Numbered from the stretch's first letter, positions 2,161 through 22,263 are shown. The stretch is DNA of 64,000 nt from Escherichia coli (GCF_029227855.1 NZ_CP074356.1); one strand, 5' to 3'. Numbers and translations: made by a program. The notes: generated from the letters alone by a model not told the origin.

Positions 2161-3006
2161 TTATTTTCCCGCCTCCGGGTGCGTATCAAACGCCGCCATC
2201 ACCAGCGCTAACTCATCCACAGTAAAGCCATGTTTCACATCATCCACGCCCAGACCAAACTGTTCCTGCATCACGGCATATAACGACGCCACATCTGGTA
2301 GATTTCGCTGTTCCACCGCGTGCCCATTTTCATAATGGGTAAAATGAAAATTGGTCAGCGTTAGCTTGCCGCCGTCCGGCAAATGGCGGCACATCAGCAA
2401 ATGATGGCGAAAATGCGACTGTGGCCAGTGCGCCGACCAGAAATTGCCCATCACATAATCGCTTTGTTGCTGCTCGCAGAGATCAAAACGGTACATCGAC
2501 TGCCAGTGCTGATGATGATTAAACTGCAACACCCAATCATCACCCTCCTGTAACAACCGATACTCTCCGTGTGGCGTGATCTGCACGAGATCGGGAACTA
2601 AACGAATCGGCGCGGTTAGCGTCTGTCCACCGAAACCGACATCAGCAATCCATTTTTCCCCTTCCAGTTCCACCAACAGTAAACGATGGGTGCGCGGCGG
2701 CAATGCTGGCGGATTTGATAACACTACACGACCTAACAAGCTGCGAACGTTAAACCCCAGCTCGCGTAACACCCGCTCAAACACGCCATTCTGCTCAAAA
2801 CAGTAACCGCCACGACGGGCTGTCACCAGTTTCTCTTCCAGCGATTGATCATCAAGCTGTATTTCCCTCGGCAGCAAAACGTCGAGGTTTTCAAATGGAA
2901 TGGTGCAATTGTGTTTCAGGTGCAATGCACGCAGCGTATCAATATTGGCCGCAGCAGCTCCCAACCAGTTAATACGGGCAAAATAGTGATTCAGAATGGG
3001 CGTCAT
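2161..3006 (-). CDS. nhoA: Arylamine N-acetyltransferase (N-hydroxyarylamine O-acetyltransferase)
   Basis: 281-aa ORF recognised as NhoA/NAT family. Confidence 0.9.
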   Translation of the reverse strand: MTPILNHYFARINWLGAAAANIDTLRALHLKHNCTIPFENLDVLLPREIQLDDQSLEEKLVTARRGGYCFEQNGVFERVLRELGFNVRSLLGRVVLSNPPALPPRTHRLLLVELEGEKWIADVGFGGQTLTAPIRLVPDLVQITPHGEYRLLQEGDDWVLQFNHHQHWQSMYRFDLCEQQQSDYVMGNFWSAHWPQSHFRHHLLMCRHLPDGGKLTLTNFHFTHYENGHAVEQRNLPDVASLYAVMQEQFGLGVDDVKHGFTVDELALVMAAFDTHPEAGK

Positions 3007-3180
3007 CAGGCGTTTCCCTTAGTGGTTTTCTCAACTTATAACCTGGAATAGACGCCGCACTGGCTATTTTGTGCGATCGCGGACATGCATCACGTTCGCA
3101 AATCGCCAATCCCGTTAATTTCGTTACTTATTGCGTTACGAGCTACGCTTTTAAAACACCCTTCATAGCGAGGCGATATC

Positions 3181-3750
3181 GTGAGCCAATTCATTCCCGT
3201 CGAATTACACCATGCCAGCCGTCTGTTAAATCATGGCCCAACTGTCATGATCACCAGTTTCGATGAGCAATCCCAGCGGCGTAACATTATGGCAGCAGCC
3301 TGGTCAATGCCGGTGGAGTTTGAACCGCCACGCGTGGCGATTGTGGTAGATAAATCGACATGGACCAGGGAGTTGATTGAACGTAATGGTAAGTTTGGCA
3401 TCGTTATCCCGGGTGTTGCAGCAACTAACTGGACGTGGGCGGTGGGAAGTGTGTCGGGGCGTGATGAAGATAAGTTTAATTGCTATGGTATTCCGGTTGT
3501 GAAAGGTCCGGTGCTTGGTTTGCCGCTGGTCGAGGAAAAATGTCTGGCGTGGATGGAGTGTCGCCTGCTACCTGCAACTTCCGCGCAAGAAAAATACGAT
3601 ACGCTATTTGGCGAAGTGGTATCTGCAGCGGCAGACGCACGAGTATTTGTCGAAGGCCGCTGGCAGTTTGATGATGACAAACTCAATACGTTGCATCATT
3701 TAGGTGCTGGCACGTTTGTTACCAGCGGCAAGCGTGTTACGGCAGGTTAA
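3181..3750 (+). CDS. yddH: Flavin reductase-like domain protein
   Basis: 189-aa ORF recognised as YddH; synteny. Confidence 0.85.
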   Translation: MSQFIPVELHHASRLLNHGPTVMITSFDEQSQRRNIMAAAWSMPVEFEPPRVAIVVDKSTWTRELIERNGKFGIVIPGVAATNWTWAVGSVSGRDEDKFNCYGIPVVKGPVLGLPLVEEKCLAWMECRLLPATSAQEKYDTLFGEVVSAAADARVFVEGRWQFDDDKLNTLHHLGAGTFVTSGKRVTAG

Positions 3751-3753
3751 GCA

Positions 3754-3981
3754 TTACATGCTGTAACCGGGTTTCTTTATCAAAGCCTCCATTTGGGGCT
3801 CGATTTCGGCATCCCAGATAGCTTGCCAAGATTCTGGTTGAATCTGCTGTAGAGAAATGCTTATCGAGCTATCTTTACTGTTCAGATGGCGAATAATAAC
3901 GTCGGTAATATCTGCAGCAAGTGCTGCTTTTTGTTGTTCGTCCAGTTCACGCGGAAAACATTTAATGTCTATGTGCGGCAT
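3754..3981 (-). CDS. pptA: Tautomerase PptA (4-oxalocrotonate tautomerase family)
   Basis: Start at MPHIDIK (N-terminal Pro after Met is the tautomerase catalytic signature); 75 aa; longer ORF-track version adds a non-native N-terminal extension. Confidence 0.85.
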
Positions 3982-4286
3982 GATTGTGCTCCTTTTGAAA
4001 GATGTCAGTAAAATTAACACACGTTGTGAATGTCGTGTGTCCGGTAATGCGTTTTTACGGCAATAATGCCTACTTGAAATTGTACATATTTGTACTACAC
4101 ACTTTTAAATAAAGCGCCAATGAAAACGTTAACTTGCAGAATATATTCTTCGCCAACATGCCATTAAGAAAACATCAAGTTCCCGGCTTGCCAATTTGTT
4201 AACGCCCATTATAGTTATTCTTGCCCTCACTAAAAATTTTCATCCGTAATTACCCCCAATAAAAATCCATTCTGGAGACGCTTAAG

Positions 4287-6263
4287 ATGCAGCTTAATCA
4301 TATCGTTAAAAGTCTGCTAATAACGGGATTATTCACCACCAGTTCTTTACCTCTCCTCGCGGCGGAAGCTCCTAAAGACGCCACCGCAGCCACGCAACAA
4401 GCAAACAATTTACTCTACAACCAGTTGCCGTTTGCCGATAACACTGACTTTACTGATGCCCATAAAGGTTTTATTGCCCCTATCCCTCAAGACGTGATTA
4501 AGGGCGAACAAGGGAATGTTATCTGGGATCCACAACATTACGCTTTTATCAAAGAAGGCGATAAAGCCCCTGATACGGTGAATCCGAGTTTATGGCGTCA
4601 GGCGCAACTGATAAATATCAGCGGGTTATTCGAAGTAACTGAAGGTGTCTATCAGATTCGCAATCTCGATCTATCAAATATGACCATCATTGAAGGCAAA
4701 GAGGGTATTACCGTCGTTGATCCCCTTGTTTCAGCAGAAACAGCCAAAGTGGGTATGGATCTCTATTACAAAAATCGCGGCAAAAAACCGGTAGTGGCGG
4801 TTATCTATACACACAGTCATGTCGATCACTACGGTGGTGTTCGTGGCGTAATTGATGAAGCTGACGTTAAATCAGGCAAAGTTAAAATCTATGCGCCAGC
4901 CGGATTTTTGGAGGAAGCCGTTTCCGAAAACATCATGGCTGGCAATGTTATGAGCCGACGAGCCAGTTATATGTATGGCAACTTATTGAAACCTGATGTT
5001 AAAGGCCAGGTGGGGGCTGGACTGGGAACGACTACTTCAGCAGGAACAGTCACGTTGATTGCTCCTACTAACTACATCACCAAAACCGGACAAAAAGAAA
5101 CTATTGACGGGTTGACTTATGATTTCCTGATGGCGCCAGGTTCTGAAGCGCCTTCTGAAATGCTGTGGTTTATTGAAGAAAAGAAACTGATCGAAACCGC
5201 TGAAGATGTCACGCACACCCTTCATAACACCTATTCGCTGCGTGGGGCTAAAATTCGCCAACCGCTGCCGTGGTCAAAATATATTAATGAAGCTCTCAAT
5301 TTGTGGGGTGATAAAGCCGAGATTATTCTCGCTCAACATCACTGGCCAACCTGGGGCAACGATAACGTGGTCAAACTGCTTAAAAGCCAGCGTGATTTGT
5401 ATCGTTACATCAATGATCAAACTCTGCGCATGGCTAATCAAGGGATGACCCGTGATGAAATTGCCGCAAACTTTAAACTGCCCTCTTCACTGGCTAACAC
5501 CTGGGCGAATCGCGGCTATTACGGTTCGGTAAGTCATGACGTGAAAGCAACTTACGTGCTTTATCTCGGCTGGTTTGATGGTAACCCCGCGACGCTTGAT
5601 GAACTGCCGCCAGAAGAAGGCGCAAAAAAATTCGTCGAGTATATGGGCGGTGCTGATGCCATTTTACAGAAAGCCAAACAGGATTATGACCAGGGTAATT
5701 TCCGCTGGGTTGCCCAAGTTGTTAGTAAGGTGGTGTTTGCCGATCCAAACAACCAGGCAGCGAGAGATCTGGAAGCTGATGCGCTTGAGCAGTTAGGCTA
5801 TCAGGCTGAATCTGGGCCGTGGCGTAATTTCTATCTCACTGGTGCACAGGAATTGCGTAATGGCGTACAAAAATTACCAACACCAAATACTGCCAGCCCA
5901 GACACCGTGCGTGCGATGACGCCGGAGATGTTCTTTGATTATCTTGCCGTCCATATTAATGGTGAGAAAGCGGCAGATGCCAAAACCGTGTTGAATTTCG
6001 ATTTTGGTGAAGATGGCGGCACCTATAAAGTGGAGCTTGAAAATGGTGTTCTCAATCATACCGCTGGTGTAGAGGCTTCGGATGCTGATGCCACTATCAC
6101 TCTGTCTCGTGATGTATTGAACAAAATTGTACTGAAAGAAGAGACGCTGAAAGAAGCCACGGCCAAAGGAGATGTCAAAATTACTGGCAATGAGGAAAAA
6201 CTCAACGAGCTGTTAGGTTATATGGATAATTTTGAATTTTGGTTCAATATAGTGACACCATAA
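4287..6263 (+). CDS. Secreted YjcS/SdsA1-like alkyl (aryl) sulfatase, metallo-beta-lactamase fold
   Basis: 658 aa; N-terminal signal peptide (LLITGLFTTSSLPLLAAEA); THSHVDHYGG metal-binding motif; RBS GGAGA upstream. Accessory relative to the K-12 gene order as remembered. Confidence 0.8.
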   Translation: MQLNHIVKSLLITGLFTTSSLPLLAAEAPKDATAATQQANNLLYNQLPFADNTDFTDAHKGFIAPIPQDVIKGEQGNVIWDPQHYAFIKEGDKAPDTVNPSLWRQAQLINISGLFEVTEGVYQIRNLDLSNMTIIEGKEGITVVDPLVSAETAKVGMDLYYKNRGKKPVVAVIYTHSHVDHYGGVRGVIDEADVKSGKVKIYAPAGFLEEAVSENIMAGNVMSRRASYMYGNLLKPDVKGQVGAGLGTTTSAGTVTLIAPTNYITKTGQKETIDGLTYDFLMAPGSEAPSEMLWFIEEKKLIETAEDVTHTLHNTYSLRGAKIRQPLPWSKYINEALNLWGDKAEIILAQHHWPTWGNDNVVKLLKSQRDLYRYINDQTLRMANQGMTRDEIAANFKLPSSLANTWANRGYYGSVSHDVKATYVLYLGWFDGNPATLDELPPEEGAKKFVEYMGGADAILQKAKQDYDQGNFRWVAQVVSKVVFADPNNQAARDLEADALEQLGYQAESGPWRNFYLTGAQELRNGVQKLPTPNTASPDTVRAMTPEMFFDYLAVHINGEKAADAKTVLNFDFGEDGGTYKVELENGVLNHTAGVEASDADATITLSRDVLNKIVLKEETLKEATAKGDVKITGNEEKLNELLGYMDNFEFWFNIVTP

Positions 6264-6275
6264 ATTTACTGCATA

Positions 6276-6301
6276 CCGGGCAGGTATCCTGCCCTTTTTT
6301 G
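6276..6301 (+). terminator. Rho-independent terminator after sulfatase gene
   Basis: GC stem gggcagg-tat-cctgccc followed by T-run (tttttt). Confidence 0.7.
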
Positions 6302-6309
6302 GTTAAAAA

Positions 6310-7407
6310 ATGGCTGAACGAAGAAAAACTCATCACTCATGGAAAACCCGCCGCAATATGGTTATTCGCGGCATGACGATTAGTTTGCCATGGTTTGCTT
6401 TTATCAATGTCAGTTTTGCATTGATAATTTTGCTGCGCCGTGTTCTGTTTAATGACCTTACTCCACCCTGGTTAAATGAAAAAAGCCTTATACATTCTAT
6501 TGATATATCTGCAACGGGTATTCTGCTGATTTGCAGTGGTTTACTACTCATCCCTCGGCAAAAAACATTACCTATCCAGGTGCTATTAGTTGCCCTGAGC
6601 CTGCTATGGTCATGGTGTAGTTATCACTTTATTGCGTACTGGACGCTGCAGTTTGCTTATCCACTATGTGTATTATTAATGCTTAGTGGCGTTGTCGCAA
6701 TTTATTTCCATACCCCATCATTGCTCGCATTTGTCATTCCCTTATGGTTCACCACTCCAATAGCGAGTCTTATGCTTAATCAACAGATCAATATTCATTT
6801 TGCTGTTGTATGGTGTATTTTTTCACTGGCGCTATATGGTGGGCGACTCATTTTGTTACGTTGGTTTGAAGAAGCATGGGTACAAAACAGTTATAACAAC
6901 CAGTTAATTAATCGCCTTGATGCATTAGCACATCGTGCTCCTTTAACTGGGATAGCAAACCGACGTGCAATGAACAGTATCTTACACGACACGATGGATA
7001 ACGGCGGGTCATTTGCTCTTATTATGCTGGATGTCGATTTTTTTAAACGTTACAACGACACTTACGGGCATCCTGCTGGGGATCGTTGTCTAATACAAGT
7101 TGCCGACGCTCTACAGCGTTCAACTCGCCAGTCGGAGGATGTTGTTGTCCGTTATGGTGGCGAAGAGTTTGCCATCATACTTTTTAATGCAACATTGCCG
7201 GAAGCAGAGACGGTAGCAGCCAGAGTGAAGCAAGAACTTAAACTGGCAGCTATCCCACATCAGGCATCTGCTGTTAATGCATTCGTTACGGTTAGTCAGG
7301 GGATTACCTGTTCTGCTCCCGCAAAAACGGCTGAACAAATTATTTCAGATGCCGACGCTGCGTTATACCGGGCGAAAGAAAGTGGGCGAAATCGATGGGC
7401 TTTATAA
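6310..7407 (+). CDS. Membrane-anchored diguanylate cyclase (GGDEF domain, intact GGEEF active site)
   Basis: 365-aa ORF; N-terminal half has multiple hydrophobic helices, C-terminal half has the RYGGEEF motif. Exact start uncertain (alternative ATG at 6358). Confidence 0.75.
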   Translation: MAERRKTHHSWKTRRNMVIRGMTISLPWFAFINVSFALIILLRRVLFNDLTPPWLNEKSLIHSIDISATGILLICSGLLLIPRQKTLPIQVLLVALSLLWSWCSYHFIAYWTLQFAYPLCVLLMLSGVVAIYFHTPSLLAFVIPLWFTTPIASLMLNQQINIHFAVVWCIFSLALYGGRLILLRWFEEAWVQNSYNNQLINRLDALAHRAPLTGIANRRAMNSILHDTMDNGGSFALIMLDVDFFKRYNDTYGHPAGDRCLIQVADALQRSTRQSEDVVVRYGGEEFAIILFNATLPEAETVAARVKQELKLAAIPHQASAVNAFVTVSQGITCSAPAKTAEQIISDADAALYRAKESGRNRWAL

Positions 7408-7480
7408 GCATTAGGGGACTGGACAGATTACGTCTCTCCTCGCTTAACAAGGGCTGACGGAGGGTAATAATTGTCTATAG

Positions 7481-8032
7481 CTATCTTCTTAGCGATGTCT
7501 TTCTGGTATCACATTGGGTCGGTGCAATTATTTTTCCTTTAATACCCATTATGTTAAGAAATTCAGAAACAGCTGTAATCTCATTGTTTTTTTCATTCGT
7601 CTTGATCTTCCAAGGAATCTGACTGTGCATTATTGAGAACACACTAATAACGTGAATCGCTCCCTTGCGACGACTCTTGTCATAAGAGTACCGGAGCGTT
7701 TTTCCATCAATTGCAATGACGTCTTTATCATCTGAAGAATGGCAGTCAAGCATCCAGTTAATAAAGCACTCATGAAATTTTTCAGGACTGATACAGGATA
7801 CAACTCTGGCAATGGTATCGTGAACAGGAATACCATTATCAAAATCACCATATTGCTTCAAAAAATCGAGATGTGTTTCCCCAAAATCCTCTATATCTTC
7901 CCAGCCTTCTGCACCCGAAATAATGGCACAAATAGTCAACAGTAGAATATCCGATAATTTATGTTCCACTTTCCAGGCTTGTCTGTAATCGGGGGTAATA
8001 GAAATATGTTCCATCAATTTTTTAAATTCCAT
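7481..8032 (-). pseudogene. Truncated H-repeat-associated (ISAs1-family) transposase, N-terminal 5' fragment
   Basis: 183-aa ORF about 85 percent identical over roughly 170 aa to the N-terminus of the intact H-rpt ORF at 14075..15211, then diverges and terminates; shared upstream flank as well. Confidence 0.8.
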
Positions 8033-8617
8033 TTTGTTCTCCTTAATTATGTAAGGAGTATTTGATCATGTATAAGCAATAAAAAACAGCTTTAGGTAAT
8101 GAGGAATATCTCAATTTTTAAACATAAAATGCGAATTATTTAGTACAAAAAAGCAGCGTTACGTGATCTTTCCGTGGATCGTCAAATTGTTCGAGAGAAA
8201 ATACCAACATGATGGATTTTACTGTAAAAGTAATGTCGTAGTTTAAAAACTCATCATCCGGTAAAGCCTTGTGGGGCGTGGGCTTTCATACTTTTACCCT
8301 GATGTCTGCTATACGCCGGACACCCTTTACGTAGCATTCGGAATTCACCCGTAAATTTATCACGGCGGTATCACGAAACCTCCGGTTCTGATGCCGCTTA
8401 GGACTAACGACACGTCAACACAGGTTCGGGTTTATTCATTTCACTGTATCTCATATAATCTGAGCACTCCCCCTGCGCTCGCTACTATGACTCTTTACCA
8501 CAGCAACCGGGGTTGTTTGGGATCGGCTTTCAACAGCAGATCCCGGTGGCTATTGCAAGTAAGTCTACTTTCCACATCAGTGTTACTGACACAGAAAATA
8601 ATGAGTTATGATCCTTG

Positions 8618-9103
8618 TCATATTTTTAATATAGCCCCATGAGCTATAGGATCAAAACCTTCTAACCATGAGGTGTTTTTATCGAATAATGCACCTGTTA
8701 TATTTATATCGCCATATCTATCACATAATAAATTAGCGCCACATAAGTCAGCACCAGAAAAATTTGAATCTTTAACGTCTGCATTGCAAAAGGTTGAATT
8801 AGTTAATATAGCACCCTCAAAGTTTGCACCTATTGACCTTGAATTACTAAAGTCACTTCCAGTGAAATCTGAGTTATTAAGAATAGCGTTCATCAGAGCC
8901 GCATTGCGAAAGACAGCATTTCTAGTTGATGTATGTTGAATCATTACATTTCTTAAATGGGAATTTTCAAATTTCGCCCCATCAAGACAATAACCATTGA
9001 GGATGGCACGATGTAGATCCATCCCGCTAAAATCATATCCAGCAAGAGTGGTACTATCTATATCAAGAAATTTATTGGTTATTAAAAACGCGATTCTTAT
9101 CAT
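8618..9103 (-). CDS. Pentapeptide-repeat protein, predicted Rhs immunity protein (positional equivalent of K-12 ydcD)
   Basis: 161 aa; about 20 consecutive A(D/N)(L/F)xx-type pentapeptide repeats ([15 protein letters not shown] ... [15 protein letters not shown]); start codon overlaps the rhs stop in ATGA arrangement; AT-rich. Confidence 0.8.
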
Positions 9104-12100
9104 CTATTCCCCCAATCATCTAACTCCGGAAAAATTTGGCTAAACGGATATAGTGGTGCCGATAATGGACGCGTACCTGGCCGCTCAGGAGGAAGTTTAT
9201 CACATAACAGACCCGCAACCATCCTGTGATTACCATTAACAATCACATTCCCATCCATATCAACCGGTGGTGCTCCACTACCATCTTCCAGCATTTGTAC
9301 GTAGTGAGCTACTACGGGTACTGAGACTTTTTGTTGTACTGTCAACAAGGGACTGTTGGCCACAACCATCCTGATGTTTTCAGGTGTCGCAGGTAAACAT
9401 TTAGTCTTCTCTTGACTAAAGGTATCATCCCACAATTTTGTTAAACCCATCACTGCCTGTTGTCTGTATTTATCCATGGGGTCAGCAATCAACCAAGATG
9501 GACCTGACTGCTCTATGGAATCTTCTCCGGAGAGACCCAACGGATCTATCTTAGTAGTTGGATTCAATGGATACTGATACAGGTTCCATGCACCTCTTAG
9601 CCCAATGGGATCCTGGGTGATATACCGCCCCTGCAACGGGTCATAGTACCGGTTGCGGTTATAGTACAGCCCCGACTCCTCATCATACTGCTGCCCCGGC
9701 AGACGGTACGGCTGTTGCAGTTGCTGCGCGCTGGTTTCGCCCAGCAGGTTTCCCCACTCGTCATACTCCCCCTGCCACGCCGTTTCCCCTACCGGGCTGA
9801 TGAGCGCCTGCGGCAGCCCCCGGTGGTCGCAGTGGTAAAGATGAAGTGTCCTCTCCGGGATGTATTCCGCCTCCATCTGGTTTTTCATCTGTTCCGCCGT
9901 CAGCCCGCACTGCTGAAGCCATGCCTCACTCTCCGCACTCACCGCACCCGCGCGCAGTTCCCGCTCCAGCCTCCCCAGCATCACCGACAGCTCCGCCGGT
10001 AGCGTCACCCCCGTGTCCTCCTGCAACACCTCCGCCAGACTCCGGTGCCGCGCCTTCGCCTGTTCACCATTCTCTGTTTCGATTCTGATGAGCGGCGTGA
10101 AGCTCCCCGGCTGGTATACCGTCTGGATACGCGTGGTGCCGGTCTGTACCGTCGTCAGCCTGTCACCGTCCCACCCGTACCAGGTCTCCTCCGGTTTACG
10201 CGACAGCGACATCCACCCCGTCAGGTCACGCTCCCGCCGCCACACCCGTTTCCCCGTCCGGCGGCCCAGCGGGTCATAGAGGTAGCGGCTCTCCACCTGT
10301 GGTTCGCCGTGCTGTATCCGCGTGTAGAACACCAGGCGGTGCTGGCTGTCGTAATGGTAGTGGTGGGTCCGCTCGTCGTGCATCCGGATAACCCCTTCCG
10401 GGATACGATCCGTCTTCTCCGCCAGCCTGCCGTATTCATCGTGGCGGTAGACATAGTGCGCATCCTCCGCGATGCGGTTATCCGGCCACGCCGTGAAGGT
10501 GCTGTCCGGGTGCAGTTCCGGGTCCGGCAGCCGGTTTCCTGCCGGGTCCGTCGCATACGGGATATCGATATCCAGGTTCGCCGCCGTGGTGTGAACGCCC
10601 GTCAGTCTTCCCGTGTCGCTGTAACGGTACTTCCGGCTCTCCTGCGGGCCGCTGATGCGCACCAGTTGCCCGTTATCGTTCCACGTATACTCACGGTCAA
10701 GCTGCGGAAGGTTCAGGTGCCTGCTCCGGAGCTGCCCTGTGAGGGTGTACGCCATGGCCTGTTCGTACCCCGCTGTACTGCCCGCCCCGCCGAAGCTGCG
10801 GGCCGTCTCACGGTGCAGCCGGTCCCGCGTGTACTCGACCAGCGGCGTTCCGCCCAGCTTCATCCCCGCAAGATAACCGCTGCCATACGTCAGCCACTCC
10901 ACCGGCGGCAGACCGTCCGGCTCCTGACGGGTCGCCAGCCCCTGTTCGCTGTAGACGTGCCTCGTCTCATGCTCCCACAGCATCTCCCCCGTCTCCTGGT
11001 TCTCCACCGTCTGCCGTTCGCCCGTCAGGCGGCCTTTATCGTCATAGCCGTAGTGGACCGCCACACGGTGGCCTTCGCTCAGGTGGCTGATTTCTGTCAG
11101 CCAGCCGTGGTCGTCATACTGCCACTGCTCCGCCGGGTCGCCGTTCACCGTCCGGTGCGTGATGCGCCCGGCGTCATCGTAGTACCACTGCGTGACCTGC
11201 CCCTCATCCTCGCTGCGGATGAGCTGCCCTGTGGCGCTGTACCGGTAACGCTGTGTCCTGCCGTCAAAGCCGCGCTGCTCCGTCAGCCTGTCCACCGGGT
11301 CATACCGGAACGTGGACTGGCTGCCGTTCTCGTTGGTCAGCACGGTGATGCGCCCGGCGGCGTCATACTCCATGCTGCGCGTCAGTCCGCCCTGCGTGGT
11401 GCTGACGGCCTTTCCCCACGCATCATACTGTGTCTCACTCCGGCTGCCGTTCGGGGCAATGATAGCGGTGAGGTCGCCTGCGGCGCTGTACTCATAACGG
11501 GTTTCACGTCCCTGCGCATCCTTCTGACTGACCAGTTGACCACGCGGGTTATAACTGCTGTAAGTGCTGATGCCTTCCTCCCGGTGAACCGCCGTCCTCT
11601 GACCGTACCGGTCGTATTCATACCGCGTCGTGTACCCTGAACAGTCCGTAAATGCCTGAAGCTGACCGTACCGGTTTCGCGTTATTCTCCGCCTCACCCC
11701 GGTTCCGTCTTCCACCGCACAGGGCAGGCCACTGCGGGAAGAATCATAAAACCAGCGCGTAATGTTACCGTTGCGCGAGACCTCTTCCGCCAGCCTGCCC
11801 TGACGGTCATATTTCCGGCTGCGGCGCAGCCCGTCCGGGTACGTCACTGACGTCAGTTGCAACTGGTTGTTGTAACCATACCGTACCGTCCTGCCGTCCG
11901 GCAGTATCACTGAAGTCAGCTTTCCCGACGCCATATGCAGCCGGTACTCCGTCCGCCGTCCCGCCGCATCCGTCTGCGCCTTCAGCCTCCCCGCCTCATC
12001 ATACTCGCTGCGGGTGATGCTCCCGTCCCCATGCTCCTTCTTCACCACCCGCTTCAGGCCGCCCTCGCCCTCCGTGTACAGCACCTCCCGCCGGTTCAGG

Positions 12101-13311
12101 CTGTCCGTGATGGTCACGCGGTCCTGCCCGTACTCAAAGCGGTAGTCCAGCCCCTCCGGGTTGACCTGCTCCGTCACCCGACCGGTATCATCATACCGGT
12201 AGCGGCTCTCCGGCCTCCCCGCATAATGGTGCGCCACCATCCGCCCGGCGTGCTCCGCATCATAAGTAAACCCGCGCACCTGCGTCCCGCTGCGGTCATA
12301 CACCGCCCGCAGTTCTCCGCTGGCCGTGTACGTGTAGCGCGCCAGCGGCGCAGTCGGCAGTTCATCCAGGTATGCCAGGTCGTGTGTCAGCCATACCGCC
12401 TCCAGCCGGATACCGTTATCGGCACCGTACTCTGTACCGGTGGGCAGCGTGTCGGGGAAAACCTGAGAAGAGGAAACAGAACGGGGACTGGCCGGAGAAG
12501 ATAAAGAAGAGGCGCGCTGTTTACGGAAGGCTTTCGCCCGCTGCGCCTGTGTGGTCAGCGCCAGATGAAAACGGCGGCCCGCGCCGTCCGTCACCCCCGT
12601 CACCGCGCCCGCCGCTTCCCCCTCTGCCGCCCGGTGGAAGGCCAGCGTCCGCCCGAAGCTGTCCACCACGCCCGTCAGCACCCGGTATGCGGGCGGCTCC
12701 GGCGGCAGCACCTCGTCCGCCTCCGGCACCCGCTCCGGCCAGCCGAGTATCCACCACGGCCCCTGAAGGCTGTTTGTCGCCAGGTACACATGCGGGCTTA
12801 AGCGGAGACTCTCCGGCAGCACCTGCCAGAGCGCGCTTAGCGGCTGCGAACTGTGCTGCTCCGCCACCCCGCCCCTTGCCAGCCAGAACGACTCGCTGCG
12901 GCTGTAGCTTATCTCGCCGGGAAACAGCGGCTCAAAGTGAATGCTCCTGCCGCCACTGTCGTTGAGTATCAGTTCCCGCTCATGAACCTGTAAGCGGATA
13001 TCGAAGGGCGCTTTCCAGCCGGGACCAAACACCCCCACCGGCGCGGGTGTTCTGGTCCGGTAGCTGCTGTAGGCGCGGGAAAGAATAAACGGCAACGGGC
13101 CGGGCAGCGCAAGATCCGTCTCGCCCGGCAGCACCTTCGCACCCAGTAGCGGGTTCACCGGGTTACCCTTCTGCTCCTCCACCGGGCTGTTGGGACACAC
13201 CGAGCAGGCCACTCCCGTCGGCGCACCTATCAGCACCCCCGCTGAACCCTGCACAATATCCAGTCCCTTGCGGGTCATATCGCCCTGTCGCGCCGCCGGT
13301 TTTCCGCTCAT
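9100..13311 (-). CDS. Rhs polymorphic toxin, full length (PAAR-like N-terminus, YD-repeat core, variable C-terminal tip with ParB-like motif)
   Basis: 1403 aa; N-terminus [11 protein letters not shown]; long GC-rich YD-repeat core; core-end DPxGL motif (..DPIGL..KIDPLGL) followed by an AT-rich roughly 143-aa tip (about 9100..9531). Confidence 0.9.
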
Positions 13312-13731
13312 GGTTTATTCCTTAAATTATTTATGGTTTTATTCTGAGTGCAATCCATACTGATTCATAACCAGTGAATAAGATTTCCCCGAATAATCTA
13401 TATAAATTAGCGAAGTCCTCTTCACTAATTAACCGTAAAATCCCGTACCAATGAAATATAAAAATAACCACCCACACAAATTTATTGCAAATATTATTCA
13501 TTATTGTATATACATCATTCACTGAACGTTCTCAAACTGCATACCTTAGAACCATCAATTAAAGCCACAACAAAAAAATCGATTACTTTATGTCGCATGA
13601 CAAATATGAATTACATATTAATCAACCTTAAAAACAATCATCTCTTATAATTAACAGCATACCATGAGAAACACAAAATCAATTTACCATGCATACCAGG
13701 AGCATAATTAACCTCTCACCGCAGGGCGAAA

Positions 13732-14097
13732 TCATGAAGGCCCGCAGCCAGCAAGGATTAGAGAAAGGTATTCATTCTTACGTCCTGCCCGCTTTTGCTT
13801 GCGTTTAATACCCGCTTTAAAGCTATTCTCTGCGGTCAGTAAATTCATCGCGATATGTCGACAAACTGCCAGATTTTCTCCCGCTTCTCCACGAACAATC
13901 TGGCATTCATCTTCCCGCATCCCCATATCAAGTCGCCAGTGCAGTTGATTTTCTACCGACCAGTGTGCTCGTGTTGCTTCCAGGAGTTCTTTCGCCGTAA
14001 GCGTCACCGAACTTATGTAGTAGCGAAGAATACACTTCTCTGATTTCACCGCTGTTTCTCCTTCCAGGGCAAGATTACGAAAGCCCGCTCCCCGCAA
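13732..14097 (-). pseudogene. H-repeat (ISAs1-family) transposase C-terminal fragment, diverged copy
   Basis: 121-aa ORF whose C-terminal 95 aa align to the C-terminus of the intact H-rpt protein (HWxVENxLHWRLD motif). Confidence 0.65.
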
Positions 14098-15211
14098 GGA
14101 CTGACGCCAGATAGTTTCTGTCCATGGCTGCTTTTCGCATCTTACGTCTTAACCCTGCCTTGAATACCTTATCATTCGTTAAAATATTAATAGCGATGTG
14201 CCGTATCCCTGAAAATAATTCTGCGGCGTTTCCTCTTCCTATTTTGCAGTCGTCTTCATTCATTACCACGTCCAGACGCCAGTGCAGCTTATTCTCCACG
14301 TGCCAGTGGTTTCGGATTGCTGTGGCGAACTTCTCTGCGGTTAAATCAGCAGAACTGATATAATATCTGACCGTCATTTCTGGCTCTTTCTTTTGTTCTG
14401 CTATTATTGACCGAAAGGAGACTGCCACGCATAATTTCTTCAGTCCTTTCCATTCAAACATTAAATCAATAAGTTCATCAGGGACATCACAAACAATGTG
14501 AAGACGGATTTCTTCTCTGCCGTGACTCTTTTCACTAATTGCGTAACTGTCATGCTCTGGATTATTTAATTCTTTCAGTGGGAATTTTTCCTCAAAGGCT
14601 TTATTTAGCCGCCCCTGGTTTCCTTTTACAGCGAATAAATAATCACCTCCCTGTTTTTGTATCTTCTCTGCAATATCTTTCTGGCAACCCATCGCATCAG
14701 TTGTGATGATTTTTCCTTTAATATCCAGCATGTTAAGAAGTTCAGGGATAGCTGTAATTTCATTTGATTTCTCATCCGTCCTGATCTGTCCGATGACCAG
14801 ACTGTGCATTGTTGAGAACGCACTAATGACATGAATCGCTCCCTTGCGGCGACTCTTGTCATAAGGATGCCGGAGTGTTTTTCCATCAATTGCGATGACG
14901 TCTTTATCAGCTGAAGAATGGCAGTCACGCATCCAGTTAATAAAGCACTCGTGAAATTTTGCAGGACTGATACAGGATACAACTCTGGCAATGGTATCGT
15001 GAACAGGAATACCATTTTCAAAATCACCATATTGCTTCAAAAAATCGAGATGTGTTTCCCCAAAATCCTCTATATCTTCCCAGCATTCTGCACCAAAAAT
15101 AACGGCACAAATAGTCAACAGTAGAATATCCGACAATTTATGTTCCACTTTCCAGGCTTGTCTGTAATCGGGGATAATAGAAATATGTTCCATCAATTTT
15201 TTAAGTTCCAT
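14075..15211 (-). CDS. H-repeat-associated protein / ISAs1-family transposase (intact)
   Basis: 378 aa, recognised as E. coli H-rpt (YdcC/YhhI-like) protein. Confidence 0.9.
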
Positions 15212-15487
15212 TTTGTTCTCCTTAATTATGTAAGGAGTATTTGATCATGTATACGCAATAAAAAACAGCTTTAGGTAATAAGGAATATCTCAATTTTTAA
15301 ACATAAAATGCGAATTATTTAGTACAAAAAGTGAACTTCTGATGATCTTTCCCTGCCCATTGGGTTCATTAAGATCAAGAATAATGGGAATATGCTCAAG
15401 AAGACTTTGAATGTTCACCAGACGTCCTTTTCTAATATATTTAATTATTTGGCGATTAAATTTTAATCAAATCAACAAGGTAAAACC

Positions 15488-15525
15488 AAGATTAAAGTTG
15501 TGATGATAATCACAACTTTAATGAT
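15488..15525 (-). terminator. Hairpin downstream of Rhs copy-2 immunity gene (putative terminator)
   Basis: 14-bp perfect stem attaaagttgtgat/atcacaactttaat with a 4-nt loop; a short U-run follows on the minus strand. Confidence 0.45.
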
Positions 15526-15557
15526 CTTCCCCTGATTCCTCCAGTCCTTTTATTTGG

Positions 15558-15932
15558 TTACTCTAATGGTTTTATTAATTGTAAATTTTTAAATGTCATG
15601 CTTAATAAGCCATCAGAAAAATAAAGAAAAAATTTATATATCCTTTTGTTTTTTAATTTCTTTATATACCCATTACTTATATTACCTGACTTGTGATTAT
15701 CGATTAACTCAGCAGAATCCATAGCGAACACTAAATCATCTACATCAGAAAATTCAACTATCATTTTTTCCCTAATGTTCTCATTTTTATAAATGTCAAT
15801 AAATAACGTCATGTTAAAATGAGATTCTTTGAATGTCGTTTTTACTTCTAACAAAACCCCATCATGCCAGTCAATTGAACTCACAATGTCAAAATCGCTC
15901 ATTATATAATCTCCATTATCCGTTTTAATCAT
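15558..15932 (-). CDS. Predicted immunity protein for Rhs copy-2 toxin (hypothetical, AT-rich)
   Basis: Start chosen at MIKTDNGDY so that ATG overlaps the toxin stop (ATGA coupling); very AT-rich; no recognisable domain. Longer alternative start at 15965. Confidence 0.6.
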
Positions 15933-18900
15933 GGAGTAACAACGTTTGCAGGTATTGACCACCAAAGAGGTGGTGCAAGTGAAGGTATAAATCGAATCAC
16001 TCTATATATAACATACCCTGCGCCAATTGTAGCACCAGTTGCAAGAGCCGCATCAGTAGTTGATAGCCCAGAGGTTTTGCATGACAGATCTTTACTTGGT
16101 TCTGGCTCGAAACCATATTTTTTTGCACATTTCTTAATGCTATTTGGTGCTGATGAGTAATCCTCACCATGGGACATACCTCCAAATTCCCCCATTACAC
16201 CACTCCCATTTTTACACTCCCAATGCAAATGTCTTCCGTCACCAACAGCATCGCCATCTATTCGGATTCGACAACCTTTACCACAGTCCTTCCATTTTCC
16301 TGAAGTATGAGCTAATCCCAATGGATCAATCCATTGCACAGGATTGTTCATAACATAACTGTACGGGTTTATTCCCCCCGCCAGCCCTATCGGGTCCTGG
16401 ATGATATACCGCCCCTGCAACGGATCGTAGTACCGGTGACGGTTATAATACAGCCCCGACTCCTCATCGTGTTGCTGCCCTGGCAGACGGTACGGCTGGT
16501 GCAGGTGATGCGGGTTTTCCTCATTCAGCAGGTTCCCCACTCATCATACTCCCCGCTCCACGCCGTATTGCCGTCTTCGCTGATGAGCGCCAGCGGCAGG
16601 CCCCGGTGGTCGCAGTGGTAAAGATGAACTTTTCGCGCCGGTGTGTATTCCGGCTCCACCTGTCTGGCCAGTTGCTCCACCGTCAGCCCGCACTGCGCAA
16701 GCCACGCCCGGCTTTCGTTACTCACGCGGTCTGCCCGGATTTCTCCCTCCAGCCTGTCCAGCAGCCGCACCAGTTCAGCCGGGAACACCACACCGTGCCC
16801 GTCCTCACTCCCTTCCGACTGTAACTTCTCCGCCAGGCTGCGGCGCTGCGCTTTCTCCCGTTCGCCGTTCTCTGTTTCGATGCGGATGAGTGGCGTGAAG
16901 CTTCCCGGCTCGTATACCGTCTGGATACGTGTGGTGTCAGTCTGCACCGTCGTCAGCCTGTCGCCGTCCCACCCGTACCATGTCTCCTCCGGTTTACGCG
17001 ACAGCGACATCCACCCCGTCAGGTCACGCTCCCGCCGCCATACCCGTTTCGCCATTCGCCGTCCCAGCGGGTCGTAGAGGTAGCGGCTCTCGACCAGTGG
17101 CTCGCCATGCTGTATCCGCGTGTAGAACACCAGGCGGTGCTGGCTGTCGTAGTGGTAGTGGTGGGTCCGCTCGTCGTCCGTCCGTATCACACCCGCCGGG
17201 ATGCGGTCCGTCTTCTCTGTCAGCCTGCCGTATTCATCGTGGCGGTAGACATAGTGCGCATCCTCCGCGATGCGGTTATCCGGCCACGCCGTGAGTGTAC
17301 TGTCCGGGTGCAGCTCCGGGTCCGGCAGCCGGTTGCCCGCCGGGTCCGTGGCATACGGGATGCGGATGTCCAGGTCCGGTGCGAGGGTGCGTACACTCGC
17401 CAGCCTGCCCGTGGCACTGTAGCCGTATTCCCGCGTCTGTCGCGGGCCGCTGATGCGCACAAGGTCGCCGTTGTCATTCCACCCGTAGTCACGGTCATAC
17501 ACCAGGCTGTTCAGGTGCTGGCTCTGTAACTGGCCTGCAGGGGTGTATGTGCTGGTCAGTTCGTATGCGGCATTACTGCCTGCCATGCTGCCAAAGCTGC
17601 GCACCGTCTCCCGGTGCAGCCTGTCCCGCGTATACTCGACCCGCGGCGTCCCGCCCAGCTTCATTCCCGCCAGGTAACCGCTGCCATAGGTCAGCCACTC
17701 CACCGGCGGCAGGCTGTCCGGCGTGACGCGGTTTGCCAGCCCCTGTTCGTTGTATGCCTGTTTCGTCTCATGCTGCCACAGCAGTTCCCCCGTCTCCGGG
17801 TTCTTCACCGTCTGGCGCTCACTGGTCAGACGGCCTTTATCGTCATAGCCGTAGTGGACCGCCACACGGTGGCCTTCACTGGTATGGCTGAGGGTGGTTA
17901 ACCACCCGTGCTCATCATACTGCCACTGCTCTGCCGGGTCGCCGTTCACCGTCCGGTGCGTGATGCGGTCTGCTTCATCGTAGTACCACTGCGTGACCTG
18001 CCCCTCATCCTCGCTGCGGATGAGCTGCCCTGTGGCGCTGTACCGGTAACGCTGTGTCCTGCCATCAAAGCCGCGCTGCTCCGTCAGGCGGTCCAGCACA
18101 TCGTAGGTAAATTCACTCCGGCTGCCGTTCTCGTTGGTCAGCGTGGTGACACGTCCTGCCGCGTCATACTCCATACTGCGCGTCAGCCCGCCCTGCGTGG
18201 TGCTGACCGCTTTTCCCCACGCATCGTACTGTGTCTCGCTCCGGTTGCCGTCCGGGGTGATAACGGCAGTCAGGTCGCCTGCGGCGTTGTACTCATACTG
18301 CGTTTCACGGCCCTGTGCGTCTTTCACCGAGGTTAACCGGCCACGGTTGTCATAGCGGCGGTAACGGCTGATACCTTCCTCGCGGTGGACCGCCGTCATC
18401 TGACCAAAGCGGTCGTATTCATAGCGGGTCTGGTAGCCCGAGCAGTCGGTGAACGCCAGCAACTGACCGTAGCGGCTCCAGGTCATCTGCCGGGTGCTGC
18501 CCGTCGCATCCATTGTCGTCGCCGGTAACTCACTGTACGCGTCATCGTAGCGGTAGCGTACTGTCTCCCCGCTGCGCGATGTCTCCGTTACCAGCCTGCC
18601 CGGTTCATCATATGCCCGGCGGCTCTCCAGCCCGTCCGGGGACACCACTGCCGTCACCTGGTTCCCGTCGTTATAGTAAAATTTCGTCTCCCGCCCGTCC
18701 GGTGTGGTGATGTCCGTGATATCGCCTGACACCACATTCAGACCGTACTCTGTCCGCCGTCCCGCCGCGTCCGTCTGCGCCGTAAGCCTTCCTGCCGCGT
18801 CATACCCACTGTGCGTGGCGCTGCCGTCCGCCAGTTCTTTTTTCACCACCCGCCTCAGCCCGGCCCCGCCTTCTGTATGCAGCACCTCACGCCGGTTCAG

Positions 18901-20088
18901 GCTGTCCGTGACGGTGATGCGGTCCTGCTCATACTGGTAGCGGTAACTCAGGCCTGCCGGGTTCAGCTGCTCCACCACCCGCCCCGCATCGTCGTAGCGG
19001 TAGCGCATCTCCGGCCTTCCCGCGTAACGGTGCGCCACCATCCGGCCCGGGTGCTGCGCGTCATACGTGAAAGCGCGCACCTGCGTATTGCTGCGGTCAT
19101 ATACCGCCAGCAGTTCACCGGCTTCCGTATACGTGTACCGCGCCAGTGGCGCACCGGGCAGATTCTCCGGGTATGCCGGGTCATGCATCAGCCACACCGC
19201 TGAAAGACGGATGCCCCTGTCGGGGCCGTATTCCGTACCGGGCAGTGTGTCGGGGAACGCTGAGGCTGAGAGAGGGCGGGAACGGTCAGAAGAAGATAGC
19301 GAAGAGGTGCGGGCCTCTTCCGCCCGCTGCGCCTGCGTGGTCAGCACCAGACGGAACTTCCGCCCGGCACCGTCCGTCACGCCGGTGATTTCCCCGGCCA
19401 GGTCACCGGCGGCCTCACGCCGGTACGTCAGCGTCTGCCCGAAGCGGTCCGCCAGCCCGGTAAGCACCCGGTACGGCGGCAGCGGCGCTGGCAGTACGTC
19501 CTCAGTGCCCGGCACCCGCTCTGACCACCCCAGTATCCACCACGGTCCCTGTGCGCTGTTGGTCGCCAGGTAAAGATGCGGGCTTAACCGGATATCCGGC
19601 GGCAGCGACGGCCACAGCCGTGCCAGCGTGTGGCCGTCCGGCTGCGCTGCCTTACCACCGCGAACCAGCCACATTGACTCGCTGCGGCTGTACACCGCCT
19701 CCCCCGGCAGCAGCGGCTCAAAGTGAATGCTCCGCCCGCCGTTGTCGTTGAGTATCAGTCCGTCATCACGTATCTGTAAGCGGATATCAGAAGGCGCTTT
19801 CCAGCCGGGGCCAAAAATCCCCACCGGCGCAGGCGTCTTCGTCCGGTAGCTGCTGTAGGTGCGGGAGAGAATGAACGGCAGCGGGCCGGGCAGCGCAAGG
19901 TCCGTCTCGCCGGGCAGCACCTTCGCCCCCAGCAGCGGATTTACCGGGTTGCCCGAAGTCATCCCGCCCGGACACACCGAGCACGCCACGCCGGTGGACG
20001 CGCCAATTCTTACACCTGCCGAACCCTGGACAATGGGACCGCCATACTGAGTCATATCTCCCTGACGCGCCGCTGGTTTTCCGCTCAT
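15929..20088 (-). pseudogene. Rhs polymorphic toxin copy 2, interrupted by a 1-nt frameshift between core (16525..20088) and DPxGL/toxin tip (15929..16540)
   Basis: 1187-aa core ORF ends ..EYDEWGTC while a separate 203-aa ORF carries the core end ([38 protein letters not shown]) and a Cys/His-rich tip. Rhs copy 1 has tttcccca where copy 2 has ttcccca (around 16531..16539). Confidence 0.8.
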
Positions 20089-20154
20089 GATTCAATTCCT
20101 TCTTCTGTTTATTTTTAATGCTTGTTTGTTACTGAATACCGAACAGGTACGGGA

Positions 20155-22263
20155 TCAGTACTCTCTCATATCCGGCGTATCCTGCTTTTCATCAGGGGTC
20201 TTCGGTGGGGATTTCGAGGCTGCACAGTTCCAGTTAATCAACAGTGAGTCACCATTAACCTGCTCCTTACCCTGCAAATGAATTTTTGTGCCGTTGAGAA
20301 AAATTTGTCCGTCCTTAGTCAGCACCAGCCTTGCCTTACCACAGCAGAGTTCCAGATGCTCACCGGCGGAGTAAATCGCGGTCTGCCCGGTATCATCCTT
20401 TTTCGTTTTACCAACGGTGAAGGTAACGTTATTTCCGACTTTGACGTCATAACCCAGCCCGACCATCAACGACTTATGCAAACCGATCTGCGAGGACTGC
20501 ATCAGGGCCACCGAGGTGTTCATAATGCCACCTACCGTCGTCTGATACGCCACGCCCACGGTCAGCGCACGAACAAGTCCAATCGTTTCCACCTGAACAG
20601 AGCCCACTTTAATGATCTGGTTACTGCCCACCGTCTCTATCTGGTTAACGCCCACCGTCTGTATCTGATTGTTGGTAACCGCAATCACCTGATTGTTGCC
20701 GATGGTCTCAGCATGGCTGTTTATCACATCCGTGGTTCGGTTATTCAGCACCTCAGTGTTCATGTTCTTCTGCGCGTGGATGTAGACCTGTTCTTTCCCT
20801 GTCGCATCGTCAAACTTCAGTTCATTAAACCCGCTGCCCTTATAGGTTTTCGAACGAATGGTCATCTGCGTCTTTGTTCCCGGCAGGCTGCCGGGGGTGC
20901 GGTTTTCCTGGTGGTAGGTACGCCCCATAATAATCGGCTGGTCCGGATCGCCGTTGAGGAAGTCCACAATGACTTCCTGACCCACACGCGGTATCGCCAG
21001 GTTGCCAAAGCCGGTGCCTGCCCACGCCTGTGCCACACGGATCCAGCATGAACTGTCCTGGTTTGACGGGTTATAGCGGTCCCAGTTAAATTTCACCCGC
21101 ACGCGGCCATGTTCATCACAGAAGATTTCTTCTCCTGCCGGTCCCGTCACGACGGCGCTCTGCGGGCCGTCCACCAGCGGTTTCAGCAACGGCTGTGGCC
21201 GCCATGTTCTGTCTGCCGGTATTACCGCAAAGTGGTTATTCAGCGTGGTACCTGAACCCCTGCGTCCCGGCACCGCCTGCGGCTGCTCGCCGTGCAGTTC
21301 ACTTGCCACCACCTGCCATTCCCGGTTCAGGTTCGCCTGCGGATGCCCCGTCAGCGCAATTCGCCGTCCCGGCCATATCTCCGGCGAACGGCTTGTTCCG
21401 CGCGCCACTTCTGCGTTGTTTCGCCAGCCATCCATCTGCCAGCAGGCAAAGTTCTGCCCGTGGGCACCCTTGAAACGTCCGGGGTAGTCATACACTTCAT
21501 ACTGTGTGCGCTGGTAATCCTGGTGCTGGCCTTCCTGATCAAAACGCCCTGCCCAGCCGGGTCGTTTAAAGGTGTAGTCTTTGGTCACCACGGAAGATGG
21601 GCGGATTTGTGCGCTGTAGCGGAACTGGCTGATGCATAGGGTGCTCACCTCGGTACGGGTGTTCGGATTCCAGGGGATCTCAAAGGACTCCGGCAGATAA
21701 CGCACGGTGTCGCACAGGACCAGGCTCTGGTCGGTACTTTTTTGCGCGTGCTCCTCATAAAAGAAGATGCCTTCCTCCGCCGCCATCCGGCACAGGAAAT
21801 CGTAATCGGTTTCGCCGTACTGGACACAAAACTCACGGGAAGGATGCGGCTCGCTGAACAGCGGACTCCACTCGGTCACCCCGTTTTCTTTCAGGATCGT
21901 CGCGAGTATGCTTTCGATGTCCTCATTCTGGAAGATACGGAAGTTCTGGCGCAGCCCTGTGCGCCACAGCGGTGGGCACACCTTCATGCTGTACAGCATC
22001 TGGTTTTTGTCGTTCTCCCCCAGTTCAAACCAGGTCACCACACCTTTCACCCGGCGCTGTACGTCATCGCCCTGCCATACCGTCAGGTAGGCCATTTTGT
22101 CCAGCACCTGCGCAAATTCAAGGGAGAGAAACTGCTGGCTGACCAGAGAGAGATCGAGGGAAAAGAGCGAAGAGAGTGACTGGTTCAGATGAAAGGAGAC
22201 CACCGCAAACGCGTCCGGTGGCAGGCCGTCCACTTCCAGCGTGAAACGTAATCCGGTTGACAT
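20155..22263 (-). CDS. vgrG: Type VI secretion spike protein VgrG
   Basis: Start taken at MSTGLRFTLEVDG with GGAGG RBS (702 aa); recognised VgrG gp27/gp5-like sequence including repetitive beta-helix segment (VGVNQIETVGSNQIIKVGSVQVETIG); 66 nt upstream of the Rhs copy-2 start. Confidence 0.9.
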   Translation of the reverse strand: MSTGLRFTLEVDGLPPDAFAVVSFHLNQSLSSLFSLDLSLVSQQFLSLEFAQVLDKMAYLTVWQGDDVQRRVKGVVTWFELGENDKNQMLYSMKVCPPLWRTGLRQNFRIFQNEDIESILATILKENGVTEWSPLFSEPHPSREFCVQYGETDYDFLCRMAAEEGIFFYEEHAQKSTDQSLVLCDTVRYLPESFEIPWNPNTRTEVSTLCISQFRYSAQIRPSSVVTKDYTFKRPGWAGRFDQEGQHQDYQRTQYEVYDYPGRFKGAHGQNFACWQMDGWRNNAEVARGTSRSPEIWPGRRIALTGHPQANLNREWQVVASELHGEQPQAVPGRRGSGTTLNNHFAVIPADRTWRPQPLLKPLVDGPQSAVVTGPAGEEIFCDEHGRVRVKFNWDRYNPSNQDSSCWIRVAQAWAGTGFGNLAIPRVGQEVIVDFLNGDPDQPIIMGRTYHQENRTPGSLPGTKTQMTIRSKTYKGSGFNELKFDDATGKEQVYIHAQKNMNTEVLNNRTTDVINSHAETIGNNQVIAVTNNQIQTVGVNQIETVGSNQIIKVGSVQVETIGLVRALTVGVAYQTTVGGIMNTSVALMQSSQIGLHKSLMVGLGYDVKVGNNVTFTVGKTKKDDTGQTAIYSAGEHLELCCGKARLVLTKDGQIFLNGTKIHLQGKEQVNGDSLLINWNCAASKSPPKTPDEKQDTPDMREY

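Follow-up and report, generated by a model that had tools for sequence, protein, structure and literature searches.

Does a locus with two long Rhs repeats in the same orientation rearrange through the repeats themselves or through other joints? This question is raised by a 64,000-nucleotide stretch of Escherichia coli DNA (GCF_029227855.1, NZ_CP074356.1), here called the window, in which two rhs genes with unrelated tips lie among H-rpt elements of the ISAs1 family of insertion sequences (IS). The gene linked to vgrG is named rhs-A and the distal gene rhs-B (copies 2 and 1, respectively, of an earlier note on this DNA). All coordinates are window positions, and the population comparisons cover 5,426 complete genomes. 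We conclude that the region is very probably a composite Rhs toxin array at the yncG/yncH-pptA locus (rhsE, 'position 6'), that its cores are adjacent members of old families that interact by rare short-patch gene conversion, and that the big fixed rearrangements use other joints. The array lies between yncG/yncH and pptA, as does rhsE in K-12, and the yncG-pptA interval is 'position 6' of Jackson et al. 2009 (PMC2935791). The whole picture fits published Rhs biology, namely rearrangement hot spots, three core subfamilies, H-rpt/ISAs1 elements, C-terminal displacement and orphan recombination, and in this sense is already known.

Two repeat families in the window

Comparison of the whole window with itself by BLAST found exactly two long repeat families, both direct. 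The cores form the first (9599-13323 and 16383-20101; 77.9% identity over 3764 columns, 749 mismatches, 34 gap openings, E=0) and the 5' ends of two H-rpt copies the second (7482-8151 and 14660-15330; 91.2% identity over 672 columns, E=0). In this self-comparison, which the earlier note had suggested, the similarity is not confined to the protein level, and the nucleotide repeats are far beyond chance. The note had described the cores as long and highly similar. They are indeed direct repeats close to where it placed them, but at this identity and with a longest exact run of 89 nt the likeness is looser than was claimed. Likewise, the H-rpt 5' segment does recur as described, but not almost identically, its longest exact run being 67 nt, and what was taken for upstream flank is the untranslated 5' end of the element itself.

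How alike the cores are varies along their length, from 50% to 96% identity per 100 nt. In the cores the longest stretches of exact identity measure 89, 74, 59, 47, 44, 35, 28 and 25 nt, in the H-rpt arms 67, 55, 50 and 48 nt, and each family has eight identical blocks of at least 25 nt. The cores are about 6.8 kb apart. Nucleotide homology between them fades at 9599/16383 and collapses at the first DPxG codons; the core ends first proposed, 9532 and 16340, fall near the second DPxG of the DPxG-(18)-DPxG motif (nt 9535-9612 and 16316-16396). Neither the cores (77.9%, best 100-nt window 96%) nor the H-rpt arms (91.2%) reach the identity of at least about 95% over hundreds of bp taken to mark an efficient RecA substrate; identical blocks at least as long as the minimal processing segment (about 25 nt) are present. 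Start points for such blocks number 209 of 3,706 in the cores and 152 of 646 in the H-rpt arms, so the 3.7-kb cores are a barely larger effective target than the 0.67-kb IS arms.

Two old core lineages side by side

The window cores were aligned with K-12 rhsA, rhsC, rhsD and rhsE and with both rhs genes found at the same locus in strain 789. Core A is 94.2% identical to K-12 rhsD, 94.4% to rhsE and 77% to rhsA/C. Core B is 77-81% identical to the D/E cores, 72.6% to rhsA/C and 88.9% to the second rhs gene of strain 789; rhsA and rhsC are 97% identical to each other. Judged by these identities, core A is a member of the RhsD/E subfamily, to which it is far closer than the 22-29% divergence between subfamilies would allow. 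Core B appears to be a third lineage, RhsG/H-like, a placement made by proxy from position and divergence. Its 5' half has a 90-95% identical match in 1,994 genomes, and is 90.8% identical to a core of AR_0137 at fadE-yafV, beside hcp, vgrG and tssBCEFG. The AR_0137 site corresponds to position 1 of Jackson et al. (dnaQ-fadE, with a type VI secretion system (T6SS) cluster).

The divergences among the cores (22-27%) match those of the three subfamilies ABCF, DE and GH that are attributed to Wang, Zhao & Hill 1998 as cited in PMC2935791. SE11 and Sh. sonnei likewise have two core types at position 6 (PMC2935791). A 2020 paper on enterohaemorrhagic E. coli gives the names RhsG and RhsH to unrelated fragments. 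On these alignments the direct repeats are two old paralogues side by side, and not a fresh duplication.

Short-patch exchange between the cores

Sequence has passed between the cores. A site-pattern analysis of four taxa, the A and B cores of the window and of strain 789, gave 545 biallelic informative sites, 493 of which group A with A and B with B. Nearly all of the 52 discordant sites fall in one run of 39 consecutive sites (A 18060-17878, B 11259-11077); the longest discordant run in 20,000 shuffles was 6. An alignment of ten cores delimits the B-type patch as follows.

17935-18087, minus strand: B-type patch within core A, with its counterpart in core B at 11134-11286; it holds the 89-nt identical run.

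Over this stretch (approximately 18087-17935) window core A has the sequence of window core B and of the B core of Ecol_545, and the A cores labelled A789, A1190 and AOki, together with K-12 rhsD, have another sequence in common. The B core of strain 789 carries D/E-type sequence in part of the same stretch, which points to an exchange in the reverse direction. Ecol_545 has no A core at this locus. We read these patterns as short gene-conversion patches, about 150 bp long in core A, and the two directions of transfer belong to different lineages. About 108 genomes have the patched A allele at an identity of at least 99%; therefore the event is old and not strain-specific. Recombination between the cores of different loci was considered 'infrequent (if any)' by Jackson et al. 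(PMC2935791). One statistically clean conversion tract refines that view, and leaves the understanding of Rhs loci unchanged.

Gene order and condition of the two rhs genes

All genes of the array, from vgrG through the 5' ISAs1 stump, are on the minus strand. In the direction of transcription they are:

20155-22263, minus strand: vgrG (T6SS spike), directly upstream of rhs-A; Pfam Phage_GPD, Gp5_trimer_C and Phage_base_V; called 'type VI secretion system Vgr family protein' by the Prokaryotic Genome Annotation Pipeline (PGAP).
15929-20088, minus strand: rhs-A, RhsD/E subfamily; core 16383-20088, tip 15929-16382 (Tox-WTIP); frameshifted.
15558-15902, minus strand: presumed immunity gene of tip A, directly after the tip; 114 aa, GC 0.27; travels with tip A in 405 genomes.
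14064-15355, minus strand: complete ISEc1 (H-rpt, ISAs1 family); transposase open reading frame (ORF) 14075-15211; its 5' half, 14660-15330, is one H-rpt repeat arm.
13732-14063, minus strand: 3' remnant of a second, diverged ISAs1-family element (C-terminal part of DDE_Tnp_1), cut off by the ISEc1 end.
9100-13311, minus strand: rhs-B, 1403 aa, the probable third (RhsG/H-like) core lineage; core 9599-13311, tip 9100-9598 without a family match; intact.
8618-9103, minus strand: pentapeptide-repeat protein (Pfam Pentapeptide families), presumed immunity to tip B; linked to tip B in 143 genomes.
7482-8176, minus strand: 5' remnant of a third ISAs1 copy (ORF 7481-8032), truncated beside the GGDEF gene; the other H-rpt repeat arm.

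Beyond the 5' ISAs1 stump lie a GGDEF gene and an alkyl-sulfatase gene on the plus strand, both absent from this place in K-12 and strain 789. These alkyl/aryl-sulfatase and GGDEF-domain genes (4287-7407, between pptA and the ISAs1 remnant) are constant companions of arrangements of the rhs-B type or of the CFSAN018748 type.

Both rhs genes end their core with the conserved DPxG-(18)-DPxG motif followed by a variable tip, and both contain PF03527; only two such motifs occur in the 64 kb. The cores have a GC content of 0.64, the tips of 0.44-0.45 and the immunity ORFs of 0.27 and 0.35, so that each gene shows the pattern of a GC-rich core, an AT-rich tip and a small downstream immunity ORF.

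The ORF 16525-20088 of rhs-A matches the Pfam families RHS_repeat (PF05593; 12 stretches, E about 1e-74), DUF6531 and PF03527, and the Tox-WTIP match is in a separate ORF, 15929-16540. The two are separated by a 1-nt deletion at about 16535-16541, approximately 50 codons upstream of DPIG, which is evident from comparison with K-12 rhsE, with the copy of strain 789 and with the CFSAN018748 allele, which is intact and otherwise 99% identical. PGAP also annotates rhs-A as 'frameshifted'. The gene has probably lost its function, unless both assemblies share a sequencing error at this position. Its DPIG...DPLG codons are at nt 16396-16316. Tip A and its immunity gene are carried by 405 genomes; the presumed immunity protein has no match to a Pfam family. 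Core A also differs from the CFSAN018748 allele by a 15-nt in-frame insertion or deletion at 17642-17656.

In the window rhs-B is an intact ORF of 1403 codons with the Pfam families RHS_repeat (PF05593; 11 stretches, E about 1e-74), DUF6531 and PF03527, and with DPIG...DPLG at nt 9612-9535. Tip B comprises about 145 aa after DPLG and has no match in Pfam (E up to 5) or among PDB sequences. Together with the pentapeptide gene it is found in exactly 143 genomes. Related pentapeptide genes (95% over 320 nt) are paired elsewhere in many genomes. For annotation, rhs-B would be the functional copy and rhs-A the decayed one. The RefSeq record NZ_AP045174.1 lacks one G between two C-runs (window 12871; C4 runs in the window, C8 in the record), and for this reason PGAP calls rhs-B frameshifted there. 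One of the two versions probably has a homopolymer consensus error at 12871. Between the start codon of rhs-B and the ISAs1 stump lie about 420 nt (13312-13731), in which the DUF3969 gene and the 414-nt ORF that precede the second rhs gene of strain 789 have no counterpart.

Is the array collapsed by core-core recombination?

In the earlier note the cores were built-in recombination substrates. Taken at full strength, this reading makes them an active deletion substrate: RecA crossover would regularly collapse the array to a single vgrG-linked Rhs gene, and simpler loci such as that of K-12 would be the outcome. The geometry of that prediction holds. A core-core crossover between these minus-strand genes would remove tip A with its immunity gene, the H-rpt elements and the 5' end of rhs-B, and would join the vgrG-linked N-terminus to tip B. 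Crossovers simulated in all eight blocks of at least 25 nt each yielded an intact chimeric reading frame, 1395-1401 aa long, in which tip B forms the end and the rhs-A frameshift is avoided. Besides these products, the direct 3.7-kb repeats with their eight identical blocks, the evidence that sequence has passed between the cores, and the experimental demonstration of main/orphan Rhs recombination in Salmonella (Koskiniemi et al. 2014, PMC3967940) speak for such a substrate.

The genomes speak against it. A synthetic fusion of A-core, B-core, tip B and immunity gene (6,845 nt, joined in the 89-nt block) was used as a query, and none of the 5,426 genomes covers its junction end to end; the best match covers 86% and starts after the tip. 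The entire 4.7-kb unit of rhs-B and its immunity gene is present at 99% identity or more in exactly 143 records, with none at 95-99%. These 143 full matches equal the 143 carriers of tip B, and therefore tip B is always on its own core. A deletion mediated by the H-rpt arms fares no better, as 0 of the 5,426 genomes reach 80% coverage of its synthetic product. The comparison with other genomes, also suggested at the outset, thus has two sides: the locus is highly variable between strains, but the predicted fusion is in none of them.

Nor is K-12 essentially the deletion product, as had been claimed. Its rhsE has a 5'-truncated D/E core without vgrG and a third tip (ydcD-linked), and two H-rpt copies are kept. 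The K-12 gene is 94% identical to the vgrG-linked core and 81% to the distal core. An origin of the K-12 locus by the core-core crossover was rejected on account of its different deletion and different tip; it is another deletion derivative. The single-Rhs loci of CFSAN018748 and AR_0372 also argue against the core joint, since they keep an A-type 3' core with their own tip and have breakpoints at an IS end.

The measurements of the repeats point the same way. The cores are 78% identical overall, compared with 95% over 522 bp in the Salmonella case (PMC3967940), and recombination between cores of different loci is rated 'infrequent (if any)' by Jackson et al. (PMC2935791). Only about 209 of 3,706 positions can start a block of minimal length, and heteroduplex extension in the cores would meet mismatches at once. 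RecA exchange reportedly requires an identical segment of about 25 nt, and recombination is said to drop steeply with divergence when mismatch repair is active, by orders of magnitude at about 20%. The core-core deletion is physically possible and, because of the divergence of the cores, is expected to be rare. Regular collapse of the array by this route is accordingly unlikely. The corrective lesson is that the length of a repeat alone does not make a recombination hotspot; the fixed rearrangements at this locus follow IS ends and the core/tip junction.

A weaker form of the idea is that the homeologous tandem is a latent toxin switch, in which a rare crossover gives an intact vgrG-linked chimera with tip B and the pentapeptide immunity is kept. 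The setting would suit it: the only vgrG-coupled copy, rhs-A, is frameshifted, and rhs-B is intact without vgrG in front. If true, the switch would let subpopulations re-arm the T6SS spike, akin to the activation of orphans in Salmonella, except that the partners would be full-length genes from different subfamilies. We regard it as a long shot.

Rearrangements at IS ends

ISEc1 (14064-15355) is complete at about the 1.3 kb expected of an ISAs1-family element, with DDE_Tnp_1_assoc and DDE_Tnp_1 domains (Pfam) and terminal inverted repeats CAGGGAAAGAT / CCAGGGCAAGAT. It is 96.7% identical over 1292 nt to the ydcC H-rpt of K-12. The segments 7482-8176 and 13732-14063 are partial ISAs1-family copies. 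The former has DDE_Tnp_1_assoc and a partial DDE domain and is called partial and frameshifted by PGAP. The latter had been noted as a diverged H-rpt 3' fragment at 13732-14097. The fragment is real, but it belongs to a different ISAs1-family element and ends at 14063/14065, where ISEc1 abuts; it is 99.7% identical to the 3' end of the intact Ecol_545 copy and 68-70% identical to ISEc1.

The arrangements of the locus in the compared strains are:

789 and OkiPb01701: vgrG is followed by rhs-A, which has a different tip and a different immunity gene, then by an orphan WTIP tip with immunity gene, ISEc1 and a second rhs gene.
Ecol_545: vgrG and rhs-A are missing, and rhs-B is preceded by a diverged ISAs1 copy that is intact; 99.6% identical to window 3000-14065.
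KE55: the ISEc1/ISAs1-stump junction of the window, with yncG-proximal DNA directly at the ISEc1 5' end.
CFSAN018748 and AR_0372: a single intact rhs-A (99.0% identical to that of the window), followed by an orphan stump of 108 nt that borders directly on the end of the ISAs1 5' remnant and on the GGDEF/sulfatase block.
1190: the order is vgrG, rhs-A::WTIP, the immunity gene and ISEc1, with yddH next.
K-12: vgrG and the 5' 60% of rhsE are missing, the tip is another one (ydcD-linked), and the H-rpt copies yncI and ydcC are still present.

The VgrG protein of CFSAN018748 is the same as that of the window. Across these strains the 3' terminus of ISEc1 adjoins four different sequences, which places the breakpoints at IS termini. 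The large fixed rearrangements may thus have arisen by IS-adjacent deletion or by recombination at ISAs1/ISEc1 ends.

The core/tip junction

The second joint is the border between core and tip. Window core A has the sequence of a main gene up to the DPIG codons, and from there on the tip sequence of an orphan. Strain 789, the OkiPb01701 isolates and most of 30 rows sampled from the 405 carriers have tip A as an orphan fragment; a minority have it fused to a full core, as in the window, 1190, GF43 and N3. Arrays of the orphan type, with a promoterless 3' core fragment, tip and immunity gene, are not found in the window, and are present at the same locus in 789, OkiPb01701 and most of the sampled carriers of tip A. 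The earlier note saw the locus as a snapshot of C-terminal displacement and toxin-cassette shuffling. The window itself contains no orphan tip (its two DPxG-18-DPxG motifs belong to the two rhs genes), but displacement becomes visible once other strains are compared.

Tips may be swapped between 'main' and 'orphan' positions at the conserved core end that encodes DPxG. The junction of core A and tip A is the outcome that would be expected from the main/orphan exchange shown in Salmonella (PMC3967940). It also resembles C-terminal displacement (Jackson et al. 2009, PMC2935791), as tip A occurs either as an orphan or fused, with the junction at the DPxG-coding core end. The Salmonella main and orphan genes share 522 bp at 95%, whereas the junction here has only tens of bp of homology, the core remnant of the strain 789 orphan being badly degraded, and no orphan is present in the window. 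An alternative is that the fusion of core A and tip A is the ancestral state before displacement.

The orphan WTIP fragment of strain 789 (L005 15979-16554, compared with window 16383-16500) has kept about 150 nt that resemble core sequence, much decayed and interrupted by in-frame stops. Approximately 30-40 nt around its DPIG codons are usable for exchange with the main gene.

Relation to known Rhs systems

A tandem of RhsE and RhsH at min 32.8 has reportedly been described. The window agrees with it in its yncG-pptA locus, in the pairing of a D/E core with a core probably of a third subfamily in the same orientation, and in the H-rpt beside them. It differs in its tips (Tox-WTIP and an unclassified tip with pentapeptide immunity), in the frameshift of rhs-A and in the composite ISEc1/ISAs1 junction.

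The name 'rearrangement hot spot' comes from unequal crossover between K-12 rhsA and rhsB (Lin, Capage & Hill 1984, as summarised in PMC2935791). The window shares with that system long direct Rhs core repeats as RecA substrates. However, the rhsA, rhsB and rhsC cores are nearly identical, unlike the window cores with their 78% identity at a distance of about 6.8 kb. The ydcC H-rpt of K-12 matches ISEc1 over its full length, at the same locus and in the same orientation relative to rhsE; in the window, however, the ISEc1 3' end abuts another ISAs1-type stump and not pptA-proximal DNA.

Points that weigh against the composite-array reading

Several observations temper the reading of the locus as a composite array with rarely interacting old cores. 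The full array occurs in 1 of the 5,426 genomes (JNEC-KY178, NZ_AP045174.1), so its deletion product is little sampled, and the absence of the fusion bounds fixation and not the rate inside a culture. The placement of core B as RhsG/H-like is by proxy. The direction and timing of the conversion follow from parsimony over a handful of reference cores, and the old event may not have occurred in this tandem array. Target-site duplications flanking ISEc1 were found in none of five strains, so that simple insertion and adjacent deletion are indistinguishable, and the case for IS-mediated deletion is one of coinciding breakpoints.

The rarity of the arrangement also bears on whether it is an assembly artefact made from mis-joined repeat contigs. 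The presence of the whole in one complete genome, JNEC-KY178, and an indel in a C-run inside rhs-B between that record and the window, could be taken to favour an artefact. However, repeats with 78-91% identity are distinct enough for assemblers to keep apart, and each junction is seen independently elsewhere: ISEc1/ISAs1 stump in KE55, rhs-A::WTIP-immunity-ISEc1 in 1190, and the rhs-B block in 143 genomes. An artefact is very improbable. That the cores are a recent tandem duplication now diverging, as their shared orientation, length and domain layout might suggest, is hardly credible and was rejected on the subfamily identities, since they differ by 22% while each is 89-94% identical to cores of other loci or strains, each is found alone at this locus in other genomes, and their tips and immunity genes are unrelated.

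Minor observations

The window and NZ_AP045174.1 differ over 29 kb by four substitutions and two indels, the differing positions being 12871 and also 267, 6355, 9791, 28197 and 28809.

The 127 bp that adjoin the ISAs1 remnant beyond its 5' end (8177-8303) recur, at 84%, directly outside the 5' end of the Ecol_545 ISAs1 copy and of the KE55 ISEc1. This sequence may be favoured as a target, or it may belong to a larger mobile unit. In KE55 and Ecol_545 the IS is flanked by 368 bp, of which the first 127 bp are similar to window 8177-8303 and 37 bp to a site upstream of vgrG.

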